UHGV virus genome: UHGV-1592266
Source: a virus
DNA length: 17,097 nt
Reading direction: 5' to 3' (one strand)
Below, one piece after another: positions 913-11,416 of this stretch. Below the pieces are notes generated by a model that saw only the letters and a program-made list of their open reading frames with translations, made no database searches and was not told the DNA's origin. Positions within the stretch are counted from its first letter, which is position 1. Every line of letters begins with the position of its first letter. Position numbers and translations under genes: made by a program.

Positions 913-1257
913 TTACTCCCCTTTACCGGCTGCGGTGACGTTGATGCCAGCGTTATCACAGGCGATGCGGAATGCCGCTTGAAGTTCTCGCGCAACGTGT
1001 GGCACATAGCCGTCGAAGGTTGGCATTTCGACAGTCTTCTTTTCTGCGGCTTCCAGCTCATCCAGCAGCGCCAGCACGGTAGTGGGGTTTGCTGCGGAGT
1101 TCAGCGCGTTCAAGGCAGTGATATCTGCATCAAGCTGAGTTCCTTCTGCCAGTGAGATATCGAAAATGTCATCAGGCGGCATAACACTAAGGCGCTCATG
1201 TGCGCCAACTGCTGCCGCTGCGATTTCACGCAGCGCCTGTTTGTCGATGTTGCTCAT
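913..1257 (-). CDS. ead/Ea22-like protein (114 aa)
   Basis: The N-terminus MSNIDKQALREIAAAA is paralogous to the N-terminus of the 355-aa protein ([15 protein letters not shown]). ATGA start/stop overlap with the upstream gene. Confidence 0.5.
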   Translation of the reverse strand: MSNIDKQALREIAAAAVGAHERLSVMPPDDIFDISLAEGTQLDADITALNALNSAANPTTVLALLDELEAAEKKTVEMPTFDGYVPHVARELQAAFRIACDNAGINVTAAGKGE

Positions 1258-1526
1258 TGGGCGGTTCCTTCGTAACCGATGGCTTCTGCAATTTCAGCAA
1301 GTGTCTCTGCACTTTCACCCACTGGCTCATTCATCCAGTCGAAGGAAACAAGCTTACCGCCTTCGATAACGCCGATGTTGAAATCATCACTACCTTGTGT
1401 TTTCAGACCATGCTTGATTGCCTTATCGCGCTTATCGAAGTCAACGCCGTCTGTCGTGTATTCAACTCCATGGCCTTTCTCGTTGCACCACCAGTACTGC
1501 TGAATAACGATGTATGATTTGCTCAT
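1254..1526 (-). CDS. hypothetical protein (90 aa)
   Basis: ATG at 1526 with GGGAG RBS. ATGA overlaps with both neighbours, indicating translational coupling. Confidence 0.45.
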   Translation of the reverse strand: MSKSYIVIQQYWWCNEKGHGVEYTTDGVDFDKRDKAIKHGLKTQGSDDFNIGVIEGGKLVSFDWMNEPVGESAETLAEIAEAIGYEGTAQ

Positions 1527-2590
1527 AGCGCGGCTCCCTGTCGTAACTGGTCGGCGAGTTCGAATTCACCATGGTTAGTAAATTCGCCTGCAAGTTTTTC
1601 TCTTAGCTTCATAACGGCTTCCTTTGCGCTTTCGATATCCTTATGGTGCCCTGCGCTGTACTTCTTCCCGTTAAATTGAACGCTTGCTACATATCGCTTA
1701 TCGCGCTTATTCCAATAGACCCCCTTGACACCAGTGGTGTTATTTTTCTGGGTTGGTTTGTTGAATTGATTCTGCGATAGAGAGCAAAGGCGCAGGTTTC
1801 TTATGCTGTTGTCTTTCTTGATGCCATTGATATGGTCGATAGGCTGGGAAGGCCATTCTCCGTAATGTAGAAGCCATGCTAGACGGTGAGCAAAGCACTT
1901 CTTGCCAAACAGCGAAAAGGCGTAATAGCCCTGCCAAGTTTGAGAGCCAATAATTGCTCCTTCCTGACGACCTGCAAAGTTGACTTTCGCGGTAAGAACT
2001 CCAGTTTCAGGGTTGTAGTCAATAAGGTCTCTGATATCGCCAACAGACATGAGCAGATTCTTATTAAGGATTTCAATTTCCTTCTGGAGTGGTTCAGATG
2101 CCTCACGCCTAACTTCAGCCAGGAAAGCATCGGTGGCTGGGGTTTTGTTATCTGACTCCAGCCACTGGTTGTAGTAATAATCGAACATGCCAGTAGGATA
2201 ACCACATCCGCCGTGCACGTGGTCTTTCATAGCAGAACCACACATGCAGTAGTCATTGTCAGTATTACTAATGATGTTGATAAGTTGCTGTGTCCGTTGC
2301 TTCAACATCGCATTCTCCGCCGCCAGCGCCGAAAACTTCTCGTGTGCCAACTTAACAGCTGCATCAGCCTGCTTAATTGACTCAGTCGCTTTCTGGTGGT
2401 CTTCGGCCAGCCCTGCTAAATCAGCCTCCAGTTCGGCTAGGCGTTCATTTAATGCATCTCGTTCATCCAGTAGAGCCAGCACAACCTGAGGTGTTACTTT
2501 CATACGAAATGCCAGCAATTTTTGAGGTGTTGCTACTGTTTCAATTGCTACTGCTGCCTCACGCAGTACCTGATAGTCAATCTTGCTCAC
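1523..2590 (-). CDS. Ea22-like coiled-coil protein carrying an inserted HNH endonuclease + AP2 DNA-binding module (355 aa)
   Basis: GTG start at 2590 with AAGGAGG RBS and GTGA overlap with the upstream gene. N-terminal coiled coil is homologous to the 114-aa protein. The central region has the HNH motif (HRLAWLLHYGEWPSQPIDHINGIKKDNSIRNLRLCSLSQN) followed by an AP2-like motif (GVKGVYWNKRDKRYVASVQFNGKKYSAGHH). The C-terminus ELADQLRQGAAL matches the C-terminus of the 2587-3168 gene. Confidence 0.65.
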   Translation of the reverse strand: MSKIDYQVLREAAVAIETVATPQKLLAFRMKVTPQVVLALLDERDALNERLAELEADLAGLAEDHQKATESIKQADAAVKLAHEKFSALAAENAMLKQRTQQLINIISNTDNDYCMCGSAMKDHVHGGCGYPTGMFDYYYNQWLESDNKTPATDAFLAEVRREASEPLQKEIEILNKNLLMSVGDIRDLIDYNPETGVLTAKVNFAGRQEGAIIGSQTWQGYYAFSLFGKKCFAHRLAWLLHYGEWPSQPIDHINGIKKDNSIRNLRLCSLSQNQFNKPTQKNNTTGVKGVYWNKRDKRYVASVQFNGKKYSAGHHKDIESAKEAVMKLREKLAGEFTNHGEFELADQLRQGAAL

Positions 2591-3168
2591 TGGTTGCCTC
2601 CTTTGCGAAGCTGGTCGGCGATATCTTCGAGAACGCCATCAGAGAATGAGCGGTCAAAATCGCCTTCCGGCGCATTAGCCATAAACTCAGTTGAGGTAAG
2701 AATCATCCGGGCAATATCCGCTGCGTTCTTCGCAGTATCATCAATAAAACCAGCATCCCAGGCAGCCAGCATTCTGTTCGCCACAAAGTAAGCGCCTTCC
2801 TTGCGTGCTTCAGTCTTCACTTCATCCCAAAAAGCGTCGGTGACTTGGGTTTGCGGCATCCTTCCGTCTATTGCGCAGATATACGCATCAGATAGTTCAC
2901 CCTGCTCGCCGTCAAACACGTAGCAACTCTGTACGATAAATTTATTCAGCCACGCATTCTCCACAGCCAGCGCCGCGCACTTGGCCTCAAGGTTATCAAT
3001 CGTGATTCCAGCAGAACGACACTCCCGCAACGCCGTTTCTAGTTTTGATTCAAGTTCACCGAACTTACGGACAAGATATTCAGCGTTTGTTTCGTTAACC
3101 TTTAAATCTCGGGGGATGCATTTACCTTTCAGAAAACCATCCATCTCAATTAGTGACATTTGTTTCAT
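2587..3168 (-). CDS. Ea22-like protein; paralog of the 355-aa protein without the HNH-AP2 module (~193 aa)
   Basis: ATG at 3168 makes an ATGA overlap with the upstream stop; a GTG at 3186 is an alternative start. It shares the ...[11 protein letters not shown]... coil, the [12 protein letters not shown] segment and the [11 protein letters not shown]-terminus with the 355-aa protein. Confidence 0.5.
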
Positions 3169-3329
3169 TTCTTCCCACTCCGCCACATAGCATTCAGATA
3201 TTTGTTTTGATTCACTGATGGAAAAGAATTTCTCTTAAGCAATTCCTCTCTCGATGGCATTGGCTTTACGCGTTGGCGAATAATCATTTCTGCCGGAAGA
3301 ATGCCGGGATTGTATGCAAGTCCTCTCAT
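3165..3329 (-). CDS. hypothetical small protein (54 aa)
   Basis: ATG at 3329 with GAGGAA RBS 7 nt upstream. The track's longer version (to 3362) overlaps the upstream gene and lacks an RBS. Confidence 0.35.
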
Positions 3330-3339
3330 GGTAAATTCC

Positions 3340-3636
3340 TCAGTCATTACTGATAGCGCCATAGCGTGAGCGGTAATTACGCAGGCGCGGGTCGATATAT
3401 TCAGGGAATTTGTCTATTGTCGCTTTTCGCAACGGTCTCATTGCTGTTTCGTTTGTTCGGTCCTTCTCATCTTTTAACGCGAGTTGTATATCGCGTCGGT
3501 ACATCCGTTCTGCTTTTGTTTCTGGTGGCAGATCGATAAACGTGTCGAAATTGTTTTTGATATTTTCCAGCACCTCCGCCTTGGAGCTACCGGAACAGCG
3601 GCGCGGGTCATCCGCACCATACATAGGCGCTGGCAT
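3340..3636 (-). CDS. hypothetical protein of the recombination module (98 aa)
   Basis: ATG at 3636 with AAGGA RBS. It lies immediately downstream of ssb/erf. Confidence 0.5.
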
Positions 3637-3659
3637 AATGGAATCCTTATGTTGCTACT

Positions 3660-4043
3660 TTAGAAGGGAATTGAATCGTCGTATTCAGGATGATTTTGAT
3701 GATTGCTACTTTGCTGCTGTTGGCTGTTTCCTGAGGTTGCAAATCCAATCTTTGCATTCAGTAATTCAAGAGTGATTGATTGACCATTTTGCCCCTGATA
3801 AACATCAACCCTGATGTTTTCTCCGGTAATTTCCACAATGCCACCTTCAACAAGAACACTACGGTAGTAATCCGCTTGCGCTCCCGGCTTGGCAAATACA
3901 ACGGCGCTGTAGTTTGTCCATTCTTTCTTTTTTGTCTGGCGATCGTAATACTGAACGCCAGCACGGATGTTGAATCCGATATTTTCCCCGGCCTGAAACT
4001 CTCTTGCGGGCTTGTTTAGTCTTACAGTAATCGAATGTGCCAT
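3660..4043 (-). CDS. ssb: phage single-stranded DNA-binding protein (127 aa)
   Basis: OB-fold-like sequence ending in the acidic tail ...EYDDSIPF, like the DDDIPF tail of bacterial SSB. The ATG overlaps the erf stop by 1 nt (TAATG). Confidence 0.75.
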   Translation of the reverse strand: MAHSITVRLNKPAREFQAGENIGFNIRAGVQYYDRQTKKKEWTNYSAVVFAKPGAQADYYRSVLVEGGIVEITGENIRVDVYQGQNGQSITLELLNAKIGFATSGNSQQQQSSNHQNHPEYDDSIPF

Positions 4044-4648
4044 TAAGCAGCCGCTCCTTCTAATTCGTCTCGTCTGATGTTGTAAACGTCCTGCGCTTTG
4101 TGCTGCTCCGGTGTTCCTTCGAGCATCTTCCACGCTTTGGCGAACGCCTGTTTAAGCTCTTCCACGGTGTTTTTCTGCATTGCTGCGTCAGTGAATGCTT
4201 TTAGAACCTGTTCAGGTGTAGGTGATGGTTTTGATTGCTTTGCTACTGCGTTCTGCTGATGTTTATGCTCGTCTGTATCTGCATCTTTCGCATCATCAAT
4301 GCCGAACAAACCATTGAGGCAATACTTGCGTGCATAAGAGCTTGTAGCTCCCGTAACTTGTGCAGAATCCATCCCTTTCTTGCTTTCTTCCTCTCGTGCA
4401 AGAGCGGTTGCCGTATGACTGTTTTCGCCATCGGTAATAGTTGCCGTGGCTTTCACGTAATACCGATCACCAATCAACACAACTTCATCGCTGATTGATA
4501 AAAACAGGCCATTCAGTAACGGCTTAACGCCTTCAAGAATGTCTTCGCAGCTTCTGTATTTATATTTTCCGAATGAGTTGTACTGATTCTTTGGCGCGTT
4601 CAGATTCTCCTGAATAGCTGCCAGTCTTGCGTAAAATTCTTTGCTCAT
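4043..4648 (-). CDS. erf: ERF-family single-strand annealing recombinase (P22 Erf-like, ~201 aa)
   Basis: MSKEFYARLAAIQENLNAPKNQYNSFGKYKYRSCEDILEGVKPLL... is near-identical to P22 Erf as I recall it. The start is taken as the ATG at 4648; the track's longer form begins at a TTG. Confidence 0.85.
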   Translation of the reverse strand: MSKEFYARLAAIQENLNAPKNQYNSFGKYKYRSCEDILEGVKPLLNGLFLSISDEVVLIGDRYYVKATATITDGENSHTATALAREEESKKGMDSAQVTGATSSYARKYCLNGLFGIDDAKDADTDEHKHQQNAVAKQSKPSPTPEQVLKAFTDAAMQKNTVEELKQAFAKAWKMLEGTPEQHKAQDVYNIRRDELEGAAA

Positions 4649-4749
4649 ATGATTGTTCTCAGAATGGACATTCCCCAAGGAAATAACGCTGATTTAATAC
4701 TTCGACTCGGGACAAATTAAGGCATACCCGCATTCCTTCGCGGTCGCCA

Positions 4750-5197: not shown

Positions 5198-6166
5198 TTA
5201 GTAGGTTATTTTTGTTGCGAATACTTCGCCTTTTACGATGGCTGTTATGATATTTTTAGCAACATCTTCTGATGCACCAACCTTGATAAGGTCAGCAAGT
5301 ATTTTGTTATTTACTTCTTTCCGGTGAGCTTTATCCTTTGCTCTACGCTCTTCTTCGTCCTTGATTCTTTTTTCTTCTGCTATTCTGGCTTGCTCTTTTG
5401 CTTCAGCCTCGCGCCGGATTCGTTCAGCCTCCTCCTGTGCTTTTCGGCGTTCTGCTTCAATTGCCGCCTGCTTTTCTCTTTCAGCTCGTTCTGCTGCCTC
5501 TTTTGCTTCGCGCTGTGCTCGTTGCTCGGCTTCAATGCGTTCACGCTCTGCACGTTCCGCTGCGGCCTTAGCTTCTGCTTCTCGCCTTGCTGCTGCTTCA
5601 ATTTCGGCTTTTGCCTTTGCTTCGGCTTCTGCTCTGGCTTTCTCTTCAGCTTCTCTTTTTAAGCGTTCTTCATGCTCTCGCTTTTCCTGCTCCGCTTTGA
5701 GTCTTGCCTCTTCTCTTTGGCGGTCAAATTCGCGATCCATCAAAATAGCTATTTCATGGTCAGACTCAATTTGCTTTGCGAGAGCTTCAGCTGCTGCCTT
5801 AGCTTCTTCTTCGGCTTTAATCCGCGCCTGTTCTTCCTCATAATCAGTAAGAGGCTGGCGCGCCTTGGCTTTCAGCTCATCAAGGCGATCACGCACTGTC
5901 TTGCGGTTGGCATCAATTAGCTTTGGAATTTCCTTCAGTTCAGCAACAAGGTCTTTGCCAAGACCATCGAGATATGTTTTCGTCTGCGCAACTTTATACG
6001 CCAGAGAAGCGATCTCCTTTCTGCCCTTTGCCGTTGTGATATCAGGCACAAAGGACATAACTTCACGTTCAACCTTTTGAAGGATTTCTTCAATCTGGTC
6101 GGCAGACTGAAATACAGTCATTGCATTTGCTTTTTCAATAACAACTAAATCTGTTACTTCACTCAT
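5198..6166 (-). CDS. coiled-coil protein with A/E/K/R-rich repeats (323 aa)
   Basis: ATG at 6166 with GGAGG RBS. The track's longer form has no RBS. The central ~180 aa are a low-complexity EAKAAAE/RAEAEAKAKAE coil. Confidence 0.55.
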   Translation of the reverse strand: MSEVTDLVVIEKANAMTVFQSADQIEEILQKVEREVMSFVPDITTAKGRKEIASLAYKVAQTKTYLDGLGKDLVAELKEIPKLIDANRKTVRDRLDELKAKARQPLTDYEEEQARIKAEEEAKAAAEALAKQIESDHEIAILMDREFDRQREEARLKAEQEKREHEERLKREAEEKARAEAEAKAKAEIEAAARREAEAKAAAERAERERIEAEQRAQREAKEAAERAEREKQAAIEAERRKAQEEAERIRREAEAKEQARIAEEKRIKDEEERRAKDKAHRKEVNNKILADLIKVGASEDVAKNIITAIVKGEVFATKITY

Positions 6167-6177
6167 ATATCCTCCGT

Positions 6178-6207
6178 CAAAAAAATTGCCCTCACACTGG
6201 AGGGCAA
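6178..6207 (-). terminator. rho-independent terminator hairpin directly upstream of the 323-aa gene
   Basis: Minus strand reads TTGCCCTCCAGTGTGAGGGCAA followed by TTTTTTT and then the GGAGG RBS. Confidence 0.5.
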
Positions 6208-6298
6208 AGAAGATTTCCAATAATCAGAACAAGTCGGCTCCTGTTTAGTTACGAGCGACATTGCTCACATAGCAGACTCGCAAATCTGCTATAGGTGC

Positions 6299-7561: not shown

Positions 7562-8011
7562 TTACTTAACCAATGATGCTGCATATTCGATAAGGTAAAG
7601 CTTTGGGGCCAGCCAAATTTTTAACCAAGTCATATTGGTTACTACACCAATAATAAAAATCCCCCACAGAGTCAAAACTACAACCAATGGCATGATAAGA
7701 AGATTAATATCACCTTTGCTATCCCAAACCATTGTCGGCCTGTATTTGGGATTTCCTTTCTCCCATGAATATCCTTCATCACCGATTTTACCTGTCTCAA
7801 CTCTTTGGCACTGCTTCTTCATAAACCAGAAAACCAGTGGGATTGTTAAAATGGCCATTAATGTTTTAATCAGACTGTCAACCATATTCCATAGCAGCAA
7901 CTGATGAACAACATCAGGAATCTGTGCCTGGCTGAATGAAACAGCCGCGTCTATTCCATTACTGGCTTTTTGCAGTAGTTCTACGAGAATCTTGTTTGCT
8001 TGTTCTTCCAT
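7562..8011 (-). CDS. sieB: SieB-like superinfection-exclusion membrane protein (~150 aa)
   Basis: Several hydrophobic segments and AT-rich composition. It lies between N/ral and cIII, where sieB sits in lambda and P22. ATG at 8011 with GAGG RBS is preferred over the track start at 8062. Confidence 0.45.
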   Translation of the reverse strand: MEEQANKILVELLQKASNGIDAAVSFSQAQIPDVVHQLLLWNMVDSLIKTLMAILTIPLVFWFMKKQCQRVETGKIGDEGYSWEKGNPKYRPTMVWDSKGDINLLIMPLVVVLTLWGIFIIGVVTNMTWLKIWLAPKLYLIEYAASLVK

Positions 8012-8019
8012 ATCTAACC

Positions 8020-8184
8020 TCAAATAAGTGGTTTGCTGCGAAAATAAATACGTTCCCACCAAGTTCCGTATCTATCTATCCAGTTACACCAATCATCGAC
8101 ATTCCATTTTGTTGTGTCGCATTTTGGCAACTGGCATGAATATCCACCTTCTTTGTAAAGTCGGCGTTTGACTTTCTTGAGCAT
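8020..8184 (-). CDS. hypothetical small Cys/Trp-rich protein (54 aa) in the ral position
   Basis: ATG at 8184 with GAGGTGA RBS, 9 nt after the N stop. Product is MLKKVKRRLYKEGGYSCQLPKCDTTKWNVDDWCNWIDRYGTWWERIYFRSKPLI. It is below the track's size cut-off and is not similar to lambda Ral as I recall it. Confidence 0.4.
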   Translation of the reverse strand: MLKKVKRRLYKEGGYSCQLPKCDTTKWNVDDWCNWIDRYGTWWERIYFRSKPLI

Positions 8185-8192
8185 GGCTCACC

Positions 8193-8525
8193 TCAATCGT
8201 AATAAGCTGGAATTGATTTTCCGCGTTGCTTCTGGCGGCCTGAGCAAGTCACACCCATTTCACTGCGTGGCTTGCTGTACCATGTGCGCTGATTCTTGCG
8301 CTCAATACGTTGCAGGTTGCTTTCAATCTGTTCGTGGTATTCAGCTAGCACCGTAAGGTCTATAGGATTCAGTGCGCTTTCTACTCGTGATTTCGGTTTG
8401 CGATTCAGCGAGAGAATAGGGCGGTTAACTGGTTTTGCGCTTACCCCAACCAACAGGGGATTTGCTGCTTTCCATTGAGCCTGTTTCTCTGCGCGACGTT
8501 CGCGGCGGCGTGTTTGTGCATCCAT
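8193..8525 (-). CDS. N: antitermination protein N (lambda-type)
   Basis: MDAQTRRRERRAEKQAQWKAANPLLVGVSAKPVNRPILSLNRKPKSRVESALNPIDLTVLAEYH... is essentially lambda N with a divergent C-terminal tail. AGGAGAA RBS. Confidence 0.9.
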   Translation of the reverse strand: MDAQTRRRERRAEKQAQWKAANPLLVGVSAKPVNRPILSLNRKPKSRVESALNPIDLTVLAEYHEQIESNLQRIERKNQRTWYSKPRSEMGVTCSGRQKQRGKSIPAYYD

Positions 8526-8986: not shown

Positions 8987-10339
<1,353 letters not shown>

Positions 10340-10771: not shown

Positions 10772-11416
10772 ATGACATACGAAAATGACAAATTCCAGGT
10801 TCTGAAGAGCATGAAGGTGCCAGATGATTTTAAATCAAATGGCTTTGTTTATGTGCTTTCTAATGAGTGCATGCCAGGAATTTATAAGATTGGGATGACT
10901 AAGCATTCACCAGAAGTTAGGGCTAAAGAAATTTCAGCCTCTACTGGCGTTCCTAAGCCATTTAAGGTGATAGCAGCCTTTCATTCAAATAATCCCGCAT
11001 CAGATGAAAAACTCATGCATAAAGCCTTTGCAAAAGAGAGGCTTAGTGATAATCGAGAGTTTTTCAAGCTTGAAGATAATGAGCTTTCTGAATCTCTAAA
11101 TGAAATAAGGGCGCTGGTTGGCCCTGAAAGAAATGGCGAGACGGCAGAATACGCAATTTACGACTCATTCATTTCTTTTCGCCATGAAAATGAGCTTGAT
11201 CTTAATGAGGAGCTTATAGAGCAAGGTCTGGGTAGTGTAGTTGGTCATCTTCCTGCGGTGAAAAATTTCCTTATTCGCGCCGGAATTGATTACGCGAAGC
11301 AACTGATAAGCAAATATAACTCATCGATAGTTATTAATACAGATGGCAGTGTGGTGATGGTTAAGTCTCTTGAAGCCCAATGCTTTGATGCGGAGGTTGG
11401 AAATGAGCCTGGCTGA
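10772..11416 (+). CDS. T5orf172 (GIY-YIG-like) domain protein (214 aa); moron inserted between cII and O
   Basis: GFVYVLSNECMPGIYKIGMTKHSPEVRAKE...PFKVIAAF...REFF fits the T5orf172/GIY-YIG pattern. GC ~40% is lower than the flanking genes. Its 3' end overlaps the O start. Confidence 0.6.
   Translation: MTYENDKFQVLKSMKVPDDFKSNGFVYVLSNECMPGIYKIGMTKHSPEVRAKEISASTGVPKPFKVIAAFHSNNPASDEKLMHKAFAKERLSDNREFFKLEDNELSESLNEIRALVGPERNGETAEYAIYDSFISFRHENELDLNEELIEQGLGSVVGHLPAVKNFLIRAGIDYAKQLISKYNSSIVINTDGSVVMVKSLEAQCFDAEVGNEPG

Follow-up and report, generated by a model that had tools for sequence, protein, structure and literature searches.

An HNH–AP2 nuclease unit as an exchangeable C-terminal cassette of an Ea22-like protein in a lambdoid prophage

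How did an HNH–AP2 endonuclease come to lie, in frame, inside an Ea22-like phage gene, and what would it do there? We addressed these questions in the UHGV virus genome UHGV-1592266, a stretch of 17,097 nucleotides (hereafter, the window) that is the early region of a lambdoid prophage. The gene at issue encodes a modular early protein of the Ea22 family, 355 amino acids (aa) in length, on the minus strand at 1523-2590. An earlier reading made from the letters alone (the sequence-only reading) had described this open reading frame (ORF), and both the ORF and every motif quoted from it were found in place (TDAFLAEVRREA at residues 153-164, HRLAWLLHYGEWP at 235-247, IDHINGIKKDNSIRNLRLCSLSQN at 251-274, GVKGVYWNK...AGHH at 287-316, and ELADQLRQGAAL at 344-355). 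The explanation that we favor overall, with a probability of about 0.6, is that this is an Ea22-family protein with a swappable C-terminal cassette that carries an intact nuclease and serves a homing-like or exclusion role.

Domains and limits of the nuclease unit

The gene contains the following features:

1523-2590, minus strand: coding sequence of the 355-aa protein (Ea22-like scaffold plus HNH–AP2 nuclease); the GTG start overlaps the stop codon of the upstream gene (GTGA)
2327-2587, minus strand: Ead/Ea22 N-terminal region, aa 2-88 (Pfam PF13935)
2204-2248, minus strand: Cys/His cluster CMCGSAMKDHVHGGC, aa 115-129, read from the sequence; part of the N-terminal parent
2111-2143, minus strand: conserved joint TPATDAFLAEV, aa 150-160, which holds the 5′ crossover
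2051-2110, minus strand: helical linker, aa 161-180, specific to HNH cassettes and inside the swapped block
1565-2050, minus strand: core, M181-E342, equivalent to a complete free-standing HNH–AP2 endonuclease according to homologue limits and the structure model
1766-1894, minus strand: HNH_3 ββα-metal finger, aa 233-275 (D252-H253 at 1832-1837, N274 at 1769-1771)
1586-1735, minus strand: AP2-type DNA-binding domain, aa 286-335 (below the Pfam cutoff; structure model)
1523-1564, minus strand: 13-aa tail FELADQLRQGAAL and stop codon; its last codons include GGGAG, a Shine-Dalgarno sequence, and overlap the next gene as ATGA
1527-2111, minus strand: block unlike the HNH-less allele of E. coli ECONIH5, where 162 bp encode a 54-aa C-terminus

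The N-terminal part of the protein matched the Pfam family Ead_Ea22 at residues 2-88 (E = 8e-9, 36.6 bits vs. a cutoff of 27), and PHROGs profiles divided the protein between the Ea22-type phrog_368 (residues 1-168) and the 'HNH endonuclease' family phrog_99 (residues 167-351); a scan against NCBIfam returned coiled-coil noise only. The coiled coil appears as a long helix at residues 34-108, with a predicted local distance difference test score (pLDDT) of 65-85, in an AlphaFold model of the full protein that was obtained from a shallow alignment of 16 sequences (pLDDT 55) and in which the HNH part was unresolved. The Cys/His cluster lies between the coiled coil and the joint, is common to HNH-less alleles, and may be a zinc site.

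The HNH_3 domain at residues 233-275 scored well above its Pfam cutoff (E = 1.4e-15, 57.1 bits vs. 24.8), whereas the AP2 match (PF00847) at residues 286-335 remained below it (E = 1e-5, 26.1 bits vs. 33.3), so that the profile search proposed in the sequence-only reading recovered the first domain outright and the second only at a sub-cutoff score. We kept the AP2 assignment because the fold is matched in a second AlphaFold model, which covers residues 177-345 only and was built from an alignment of 59 diverse homologues (pLDDT 94.1, predicted template modeling score 0.83). Comparison of this core model to known structures with Foldseek gave I-HmuI (1u3e) as the best match, followed by the AP2 domains of TEM1 and AtERF1 (1gcc), all with probability 1.00; I-HmuI covers the first half of the model, and the plant AP2/ERF domains cover the second half (target-normalised TM-scores of 0.48-0.69 for TEM1 and AtERF1). 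The modeled AP2 part consists of a three-stranded antiparallel sheet (115-118, 123-130 and 133-140, in model numbering) and a helix (143-161), as in the GCC-box binding fold, and the modeled HNH part has the arrangement β(IDH)-β(LRL)-α(SQNQFN), with a pLDDT of 94. Pfam HNH_3, the core model and the Foldseek matches thus bear out the two motifs that had been read from the sequence. A phmmer search with the full protein against PDB sequences yielded no match, and a small profile reached I-HmuI at E = 0.037 only.

In a profile alignment, D252, H253 and N274 fall onto D74, H75 and N96 of I-HmuI, which Shen et al. in 2004 reportedly described as the metal-binding and general-base residues of that enzyme. 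Across the 59 diverse homologues, H235, D252, H253, N261, N265 and N277 never vary, and N274 hardly does. The HNH catalytic residues, the absence of which would have spoken against the sequence-only reading, are therefore present in the protein, and, judged by these residues, the nuclease looks catalytically intact.

A search of 1.84 billion representative proteins with residues 150-355 yielded 95,882 relatives at E ≤ 0.001. Only 3 of the 150 matches listed covered the whole query, the other listed matches being confined to module positions ~32-192 (residues 181-341). The smallest free-standing relatives, of 160-161 aa, start 10-13 residues before a YNPETG motif, as does M181, and end at ...EFxNHG, which matches the position of G341. 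Because the free-standing proteins share both limits, the 355-aa protein contains a complete endonuclease ORF in frame between Ea22-type flanks; these flanks, which are specific to the Ea22 context, comprise 31 residues before the core (the TPATDAFLAEV joint and a helix) and 13 after it (FELADQLRQGAAL). The closest phage-encoded free-standing relatives are at most 49% identical to the core.

The sequence-only reading had described an intein-less in-frame capture, a description that holds in that a whole HNH–AP2 ORF lies in frame with no stop codon and no Hint domain, but fails in that the capture is not a fresh one in this gene, as detailed below. An intein was ruled out, given that the 355-aa protein has no Pfam match to a Hint/intein domain at E ≤ 0.1 and that the flanks are a helix and a 13-aa tail. 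Separate translation from M181 was ruled out as well: no Shine-Dalgarno sequence lies upstream of ATG181 in any of four lineages, and, because no ribosome-binding site precedes this codon, the nuclease is made as a fusion. The invariance of M181, at the position where the free-standing enzymes start, could also be explained if a sequencing error or the loss of a stop codon had merged an Ea22-like gene with an adjacent free-standing HNH gene. Such an annotation or assembly artefact is, however, already refuted: at least 65 cluster representatives from independent assemblies have the same architecture, the exact protein occurs in 5 independent contigs (4 human-gut metagenome contigs in ENA and 1 contig in IMG/VR), and, in addition to the missing Shine-Dalgarno sequence, the linker upstream of M181 is conserved in frame.

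Exchange of C-terminal cassettes at the ea locus

The 5′ 480 bp of the gene (window 2112-2590 and upstream) are 94-99% identical to CurroJimenez_Bas106, mEp213 and E. coli ECONIH5, and the Ead/Ea22 N-terminal part of the protein is 98-99% identical to Bas106_0027, mEp213 gp35 and the ECONIH5 allele (WP_103215952). These are Ea22 homologues that lack the insert, the search for which had been suggested along with the sequence-only reading; the insert-less alleles, of 214 aa, share the first 160 residues, which are followed by 54 unrelated residues. Comparison to ECONIH5 shows flanks of 99.0% and 99.4% identity around a differing block (1527-2111 in the window vs. 162 bp in ECONIH5) that extends from codon 161 to the stop codon. 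The window and ECONIH5 thus display a presence/absence polymorphism at the same locus, as do the window and Bas106 or mEp213; in phage Dewey, the equivalent junction has no counterpart of the 355-aa gene at all. Because the differing block runs from codon 161 to the stop codon, the tail travelled with the cassette, and the possibility that the shared tail is a remnant of the recipient gene is ruled out by the same comparison. The event is the replacement of another C-terminal cassette by the present one (residues 161-355).

On the downstream side, window 2145-1235 is 99.1% identical to L008, an E. coli prophage locus in which the cassette lies behind an N-terminus different from that of the window; the match spans the cassette and the downstream 90-aa gene. 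Homology to the HNH-less alleles stops at 2112 and homology to the HNH allele of L008 begins at 2145, with the two overlapping in the joint. The 5′ crossover lies inside TTCCTGGCTGAAGT (2112-2125), 14 bp that code for FLAEV, and the second crossover lies at the gene boundary.

Three adjacent genes are relevant to this exchange:

2587-3168, minus strand: 193-aa Ea22-like paralogue (phrog_614/14548/368) with a TDAFWDEV joint and a C-terminal tail; 199 aa if read from the GTG at 3186
1254-1526, minus strand: downstream 90-aa gene (phrog_26897), co-inherited with the cassette in L008 although not generally tied to HNH
913-1257, minus strand: 114-aa Ead/Ea22 paralogue (Pfam E = 2.5e-17)

The sequence-only reading held that the 355-aa protein shares its coiled coil with both paralogues and its C-terminus with the 193-aa one. 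Pairwise similarity is weak (BLASTP E = 2e-4 for the 114-aa paralogue, and E = 0.03-0.15 per segment for the 193/199-aa paralogue), but the relationship is upheld by the phrog_368 profile, which matches all three Ea22-like proteins, and by the TDAFLAEV joint and tail, which recur in more than 100 homologues. The ATG start of the 193-aa paralogue overlaps the stop codon of DUF2737, and between its joint and tail this protein has ~65 residues that are unrelated to those of the 355-aa protein. The ~170 extra residues that had been counted in the latter are indeed present, but they replace the C-terminal domain of the paralogue and are not added to it. The C-terminus common to the 355-aa protein and the 193-aa paralogue is largely generic boundary sequence, given that the tail codons form a recurrent junction motif and that unrelated ea proteins end alike. 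In L008, the gene at 3001-3936 joins an identical HNH cassette to an N-terminus of the 193-aa-paralogue type; therefore, tandem Ea22-like paralogues swap segments at the TDAF joint.

The N-terminus of the 355-aa protein (≥ 96% identity over residues 1-160) was found with at least 10 unrelated C-terminal cassettes of 49-195 residues, of which 9/10 end in A.Q[LI][RH][KQ][GE]xxx. The other nine cassettes in this slot have no Pfam domain, and in several HNH-less cassettes the joint is followed directly by RAQGV or RAxxx. The final codons of the tail double as a Shine-Dalgarno sequence and as the stop/start overlap with the next gene, and a 21-nt motif, ARGGARSCNNNCNRTGAGCAA, combines these two elements with the MSK/MSN start of the next protein. 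This motif occurs on the minus strand at 1250-1270, 1519-1539 and 2583-2603, always at an ea-gene junction (3 sites vs. 0.03 expected, the motif having been derived from these very sites, so that only matches in other loci are independent), and ten other loci also have it where ea genes meet. The motif probably serves as a recombination linker. The endings ...EGTAQ, ...EEAAQ and ...PEAAQ are seen even in small ea proteins that are otherwise unrelated, and the boundary sequence is of a type for which a part in homologous recombination between lambdoid modules has been suggested (Clark 2001, cited in PMC3029335). A role of the downstream 90-aa gene as cognate partner of the nuclease, or as its immunity factor, was considered and rejected, as this gene also follows HNH-less alleles; elsewhere, the same cassette is followed by unrelated genes of 59, 77, 84, 93, 106 or 188 aa.

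The comparison of these loci also exposes an annotation drift, in which HNH-less Ea22-like proteins are named 'HNH endonuclease'. Two proteins of this name, at L006 3324-3872 (WP_223610806.1) and L002 1713-2252 (Dewey_CDS0030), have no HNH domain: one is Ea22-like, its C-terminus being 54 aa long, and the other belongs to Ead_Ea22. Both apparently received the name through N-terminal similarity to Ea22–HNH fusions. The 'HNH endonuclease' proteins of phage Dewey and E. coli CX21, examined as potential free-standing copies, were discarded for lack of an HNH domain.

The 206-aa unit formed by residues 150-355 recurs in prophages of Salmonella, Enterobacter, Citrobacter and E. coli. Among at least 65 cluster representatives of 250-385 aa from four genera, the equivalents of residues 150-355 are ~90% identical, whereas the N-termini are unrelated except for a short LAAENAxLK coiled-coil motif; one Salmonella form is present on hundreds of contigs. 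At eight further loci, the cassette lies behind six different N-termini and ahead of six different downstream genes, and its position is nearly always directly after DUF2737 in the same operon. A relative of 65% identity, P0121, retains joint-like and tail-like flanks. The cassette is identical in protein and 99% identical in DNA behind two different E. coli N-termini (window vs. L008), compared to ~80% DNA identity between genera: the E. coli, Salmonella and Enterobacter cassettes are 91-93% identical in protein and 80-83% in DNA. The intergenus synonymous divergence (dS) is 1.2-2.5, that is, synonymous sites are saturated, and the ratio of nonsynonymous to synonymous divergence (dN/dS) is 0.024-0.034, indicating long persistence under strong purifying selection. 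The event in which an endonuclease ORF of free-standing type was fused into an Ea22-like frame is ancient and took place once or a few times.

These results bear on the proposal, made in the sequence-only reading, of a recent invasion, in which a free-standing homing endonuclease would have inserted in frame into this particular Ea22 paralogue and left the host tail downstream. Such an invasion would account for a core whose limits are those of a whole free-standing ORF with Ea22-type motifs on both sides, and for the existence of insert-less alleles with 98-99% identical N-termini. However, many N-termini that are unrelated to one another, in four genera, precede the same cassette, linker and tail included, and its synonymous divergence is saturated, at a dN/dS of ~0.03; the comparison to ECONIH5 shows that the tail and the 54-aa domain were replaced and not retained; and the nearest free-standing relatives are only distantly similar (≤ 49% identity). 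We consider a recent invasion very improbable and, for this genome, largely refuted.

Protein identity between genera is 98-100% in the HNH and AP2 sub-domains, HNH being as conserved as AP2. The conservation of the AP2 part, along with the documented co-option of endonuclease DNA-binding domains (PMC10448857), would be compatible with a protein that acts mainly as a sequence-specific DNA-binding regulator, comparable to AP2 transcription factors or CapR, in which the HNH site happens to be retained. Under this assumption, however, the equal conservation of the HNH sub-domain would not be expected, nor would catalytic residues that are invariant or nearly so both in the 59 diverse homologues and in every fused member, and we regard a mainly regulatory role as improbable.

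Possible function and relation to known systems

The most likely function suggested by the sequence and the structure models is that of an early-expressed, coiled-coil-tethered, site-specific nuclease, for which we infer a role in homing or in phage competition. The protein would appear early, after infection or induction, with its translation coupled to that of its neighbors. Its coiled coil would oligomerise the nuclease, as predicted from the tetramers formed by lambda and P27 Ea22, and oligomerisation could convert a nickase to a double-strand cutter; the AP2 domain would bind a specific DNA sequence, at which the HNH site would nick or cut. Our best guess for the targets would be HNH-less ea alleles or the DNA of co-resident lambdoid phages, and, because several HNH-less cassettes share the RAQGV or RAxxx start, a conserved target that is disrupted by the HNH cassette is conceivable. 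Repair by the adjacent Erf/Abc2 recombination functions would then copy the cassette with its flanks, with homing-like drive or marker exclusion as the outcome. A homing-like role fits the placement of HNH_3–AP2 proteins and I-HmuI in one homing endonuclease group (PMC5714182, PMC10448857) and the observation that phage nuclease genes sit at genetic-exchange boundaries (PMC10448857).

Several observations weigh against this interpretation. A blastn comparison of the cassette DNA to 5,426 complete E. coli genomes gave no match, and none of 50,697 phage records encodes a copy at ≥ 60% identity, so that strong drive is not evident in E. coli; its flanks, in contrast, are present in 1,477 E. coli genomes, and prophages of Salmonella and Enterobacter commonly carry the cassette. 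(A scan of GTDB species-representative genomes for the cassette returned an unrelated Lactobacillus stretch only and was uninformative.) Strong and long-lasting purifying selection and an intergenus DNA divergence of ~20% do not look like the traces of a recently sweeping selfish element, and the deep conservation fits a phage-beneficial nuclease equally well. Among the compared loci, we found no conserved neighboring partner or immunity gene, and ordinary homologous recombination at the conserved joints would suffice for the exchange pattern, with no need for a nuclease.

The main rival explanation, which we consider unlikely although by no means negligible, is that the protein is a domesticated nuclease that benefits the phage and does not home: it would cut host or competitor DNA, feed Erf/Abc2, or act in lysis-lysogeny control. 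A dN/dS of ~0.03 over deep divergence, the fixed position in the recombination/early operon and the reported pro-lysogenic effect of Ea22 (PMC10834534, PMC7093339) are all as could be expected under this assumption. On the other hand, the slot does not point to one shared activity, since the other 9 cassettes have no recognisable domain, and the only defence-system model that a PADLOC search recovered for the 355-aa protein was a weakly matching one for 'homing endonuclease' (E = 0.0027). More speculative, and in our view rather doubtful, is the idea that the Ea22 family as a whole is a polymorphic effector scaffold, in which a tetramerising coil would display exchangeable C-terminal cassettes bounded by the TPATDAFLAEV joint and the tail; the HNH–AP2 cassette would be a domesticated homing nuclease, turned by oligomerisation into a double-strand cutter that drives gene conversion or exclusion at the hypervariable ea locus during co-infection; if true, this would explain both the mosaicism of the ea region and the extreme conservation of the cassette.

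The swappable-cassette reading that we prefer can be compared to several known systems. The homing endonucleases of HNH_3–AP2 type that phages encode as free-standing proteins (placed with I-HmuI in His-Me finger group 2; Magnani 2004; 'IPA-HNH', Barth et al. 2023) are the same two-domain unit, with 160-aa members that match the core end to end, the same D-H...N...N site, and the same match to I-HmuI and the AP2/ERF fold; in contrast to these enzymes, the present unit, at ≤ 49% identity, is permanently fused behind an Ea22-type coiled coil and followed by a boundary tail. Ea22 itself is a tetramer whose subunits have an N-terminal segment, a coiled coil and a C-terminal domain that is variable and mosaic (PMC10834534). 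Lambda Ea22 and the Ea22 variants V1-V3 of Stx phages (PMC10834534) share with the 355-aa protein the operon position, the Ead_Ea22 N-terminus, the coiled coil and the variability of the C-terminal domain, but their C-terminal domains are small acidic dimers or DUF551, whereas here this domain is a nuclease plus DNA-binding unit.

The nearest case of an in-frame HNH without an intein is the HNH insertion in the methylase of phage ShiLan (PMC11855218), where an HNH element likewise lies inside a host ORF with no stop codons, intein or intron. There, however, the HNH is encoded in another frame, the in-frame product is a passive loop, and the insertion lies inside a folded enzyme, whereas here HNH–AP2 is in frame, is part of the protein, and occupies a C-terminal domain slot. 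Polymorphic toxin and contact-dependent inhibition (CDI) systems similarly combine a short conserved joint (e.g., the VENN joint) with interchangeable C-terminal cassettes, one of which, in the present case, is an HNH nuclease; unlike those systems, the 355-aa protein is an intracellular phage early protein with no secretion or delivery domain and no cognate immunity gene.

A full-text literature search for Ea22 combined with HNH found no description of a nuclease as an interchangeable C-terminal cassette of Ea22; of the papers returned, one names the two merely as separate genes and the other appears to deal with the P2 OLD protein. HNH_3–AP2 endonucleases and the modular Ea22 family are already known and fused proteins have been deposited as 'HNH endonuclease', so that, with known components and fusions present in databases under a generic name, the advance is modest. 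The exo-xis/ea region is among the last poorly understood parts of lambdoid phages, and a mechanism for the pro-lysogenic Ea22 is lacking; an intact, conserved nuclease cassette, as predicted here, provides a concrete, assayable activity for one member of the family. The locus also defines an exchange joint, TPATDAFLAEV, and a boundary motif for cassette shuffling, and provides an example, open to experiment, of a homing-type endonuclease kept in frame as a domain of a host protein with neither intein nor intron.

Operon and other genes of the window

The 355-aa gene lies in the pL (exo-xis/ea) operon, downstream of three genes of the left operon:

4043-4678, minus strand: erf
3340-3636, minus strand: abc2
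3165-3362, minus strand: DUF2737, with the run of Ea22-like genes coming next

In the 4 gut-metagenome contigs, the operon runs on to DUF551, an integrase and chromosomal genes, which indicates an integrated prophage. The gene thus sits between abc2/DUF2737 and int, as expected of the exo-xis/ea part of the pL operon. The right side of the window carries Phage_rep_O, an ANT/Rha antirepressor and other genes. The N protein (8193-8525, minus strand) looks lambda-like, and the repressor/Cro pair (9388-10020, minus strand, and 10127-10339, plus strand) looks like that of phage 434 (imm434).

Some other genes of the window deserve mention. Between the cII-like gene and the replication O gene, 10772-11416 (plus strand) encodes a 214-aa T5orf172/MUG113 (GIY-YIG-like) protein (Pfam E = 1e-15) that also matches the PADLOC candidate defence family PDC-S57 (E = 4e-29). 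It is the second nuclease in this prophage to lie at a module boundary and to be either homing-endonuclease-like or a candidate for defence. Upstream of erf, still in the early-left operon, 5198-6220 (minus strand) holds a 340-aa ORF that has no Pfam match and an extremely high content of E, A, K and R, with an AT skew down to -0.6. Near the repressor gene, the ORFs at 8987-9463 and 7562-8062 (both on the minus strand) likewise have no Pfam match; the 158-aa ORF contains an internal signal-peptide-like stretch and the 166-aa ORF resembles a membrane protein, which makes the two candidates for exclusion functions expressed in the lysogen.

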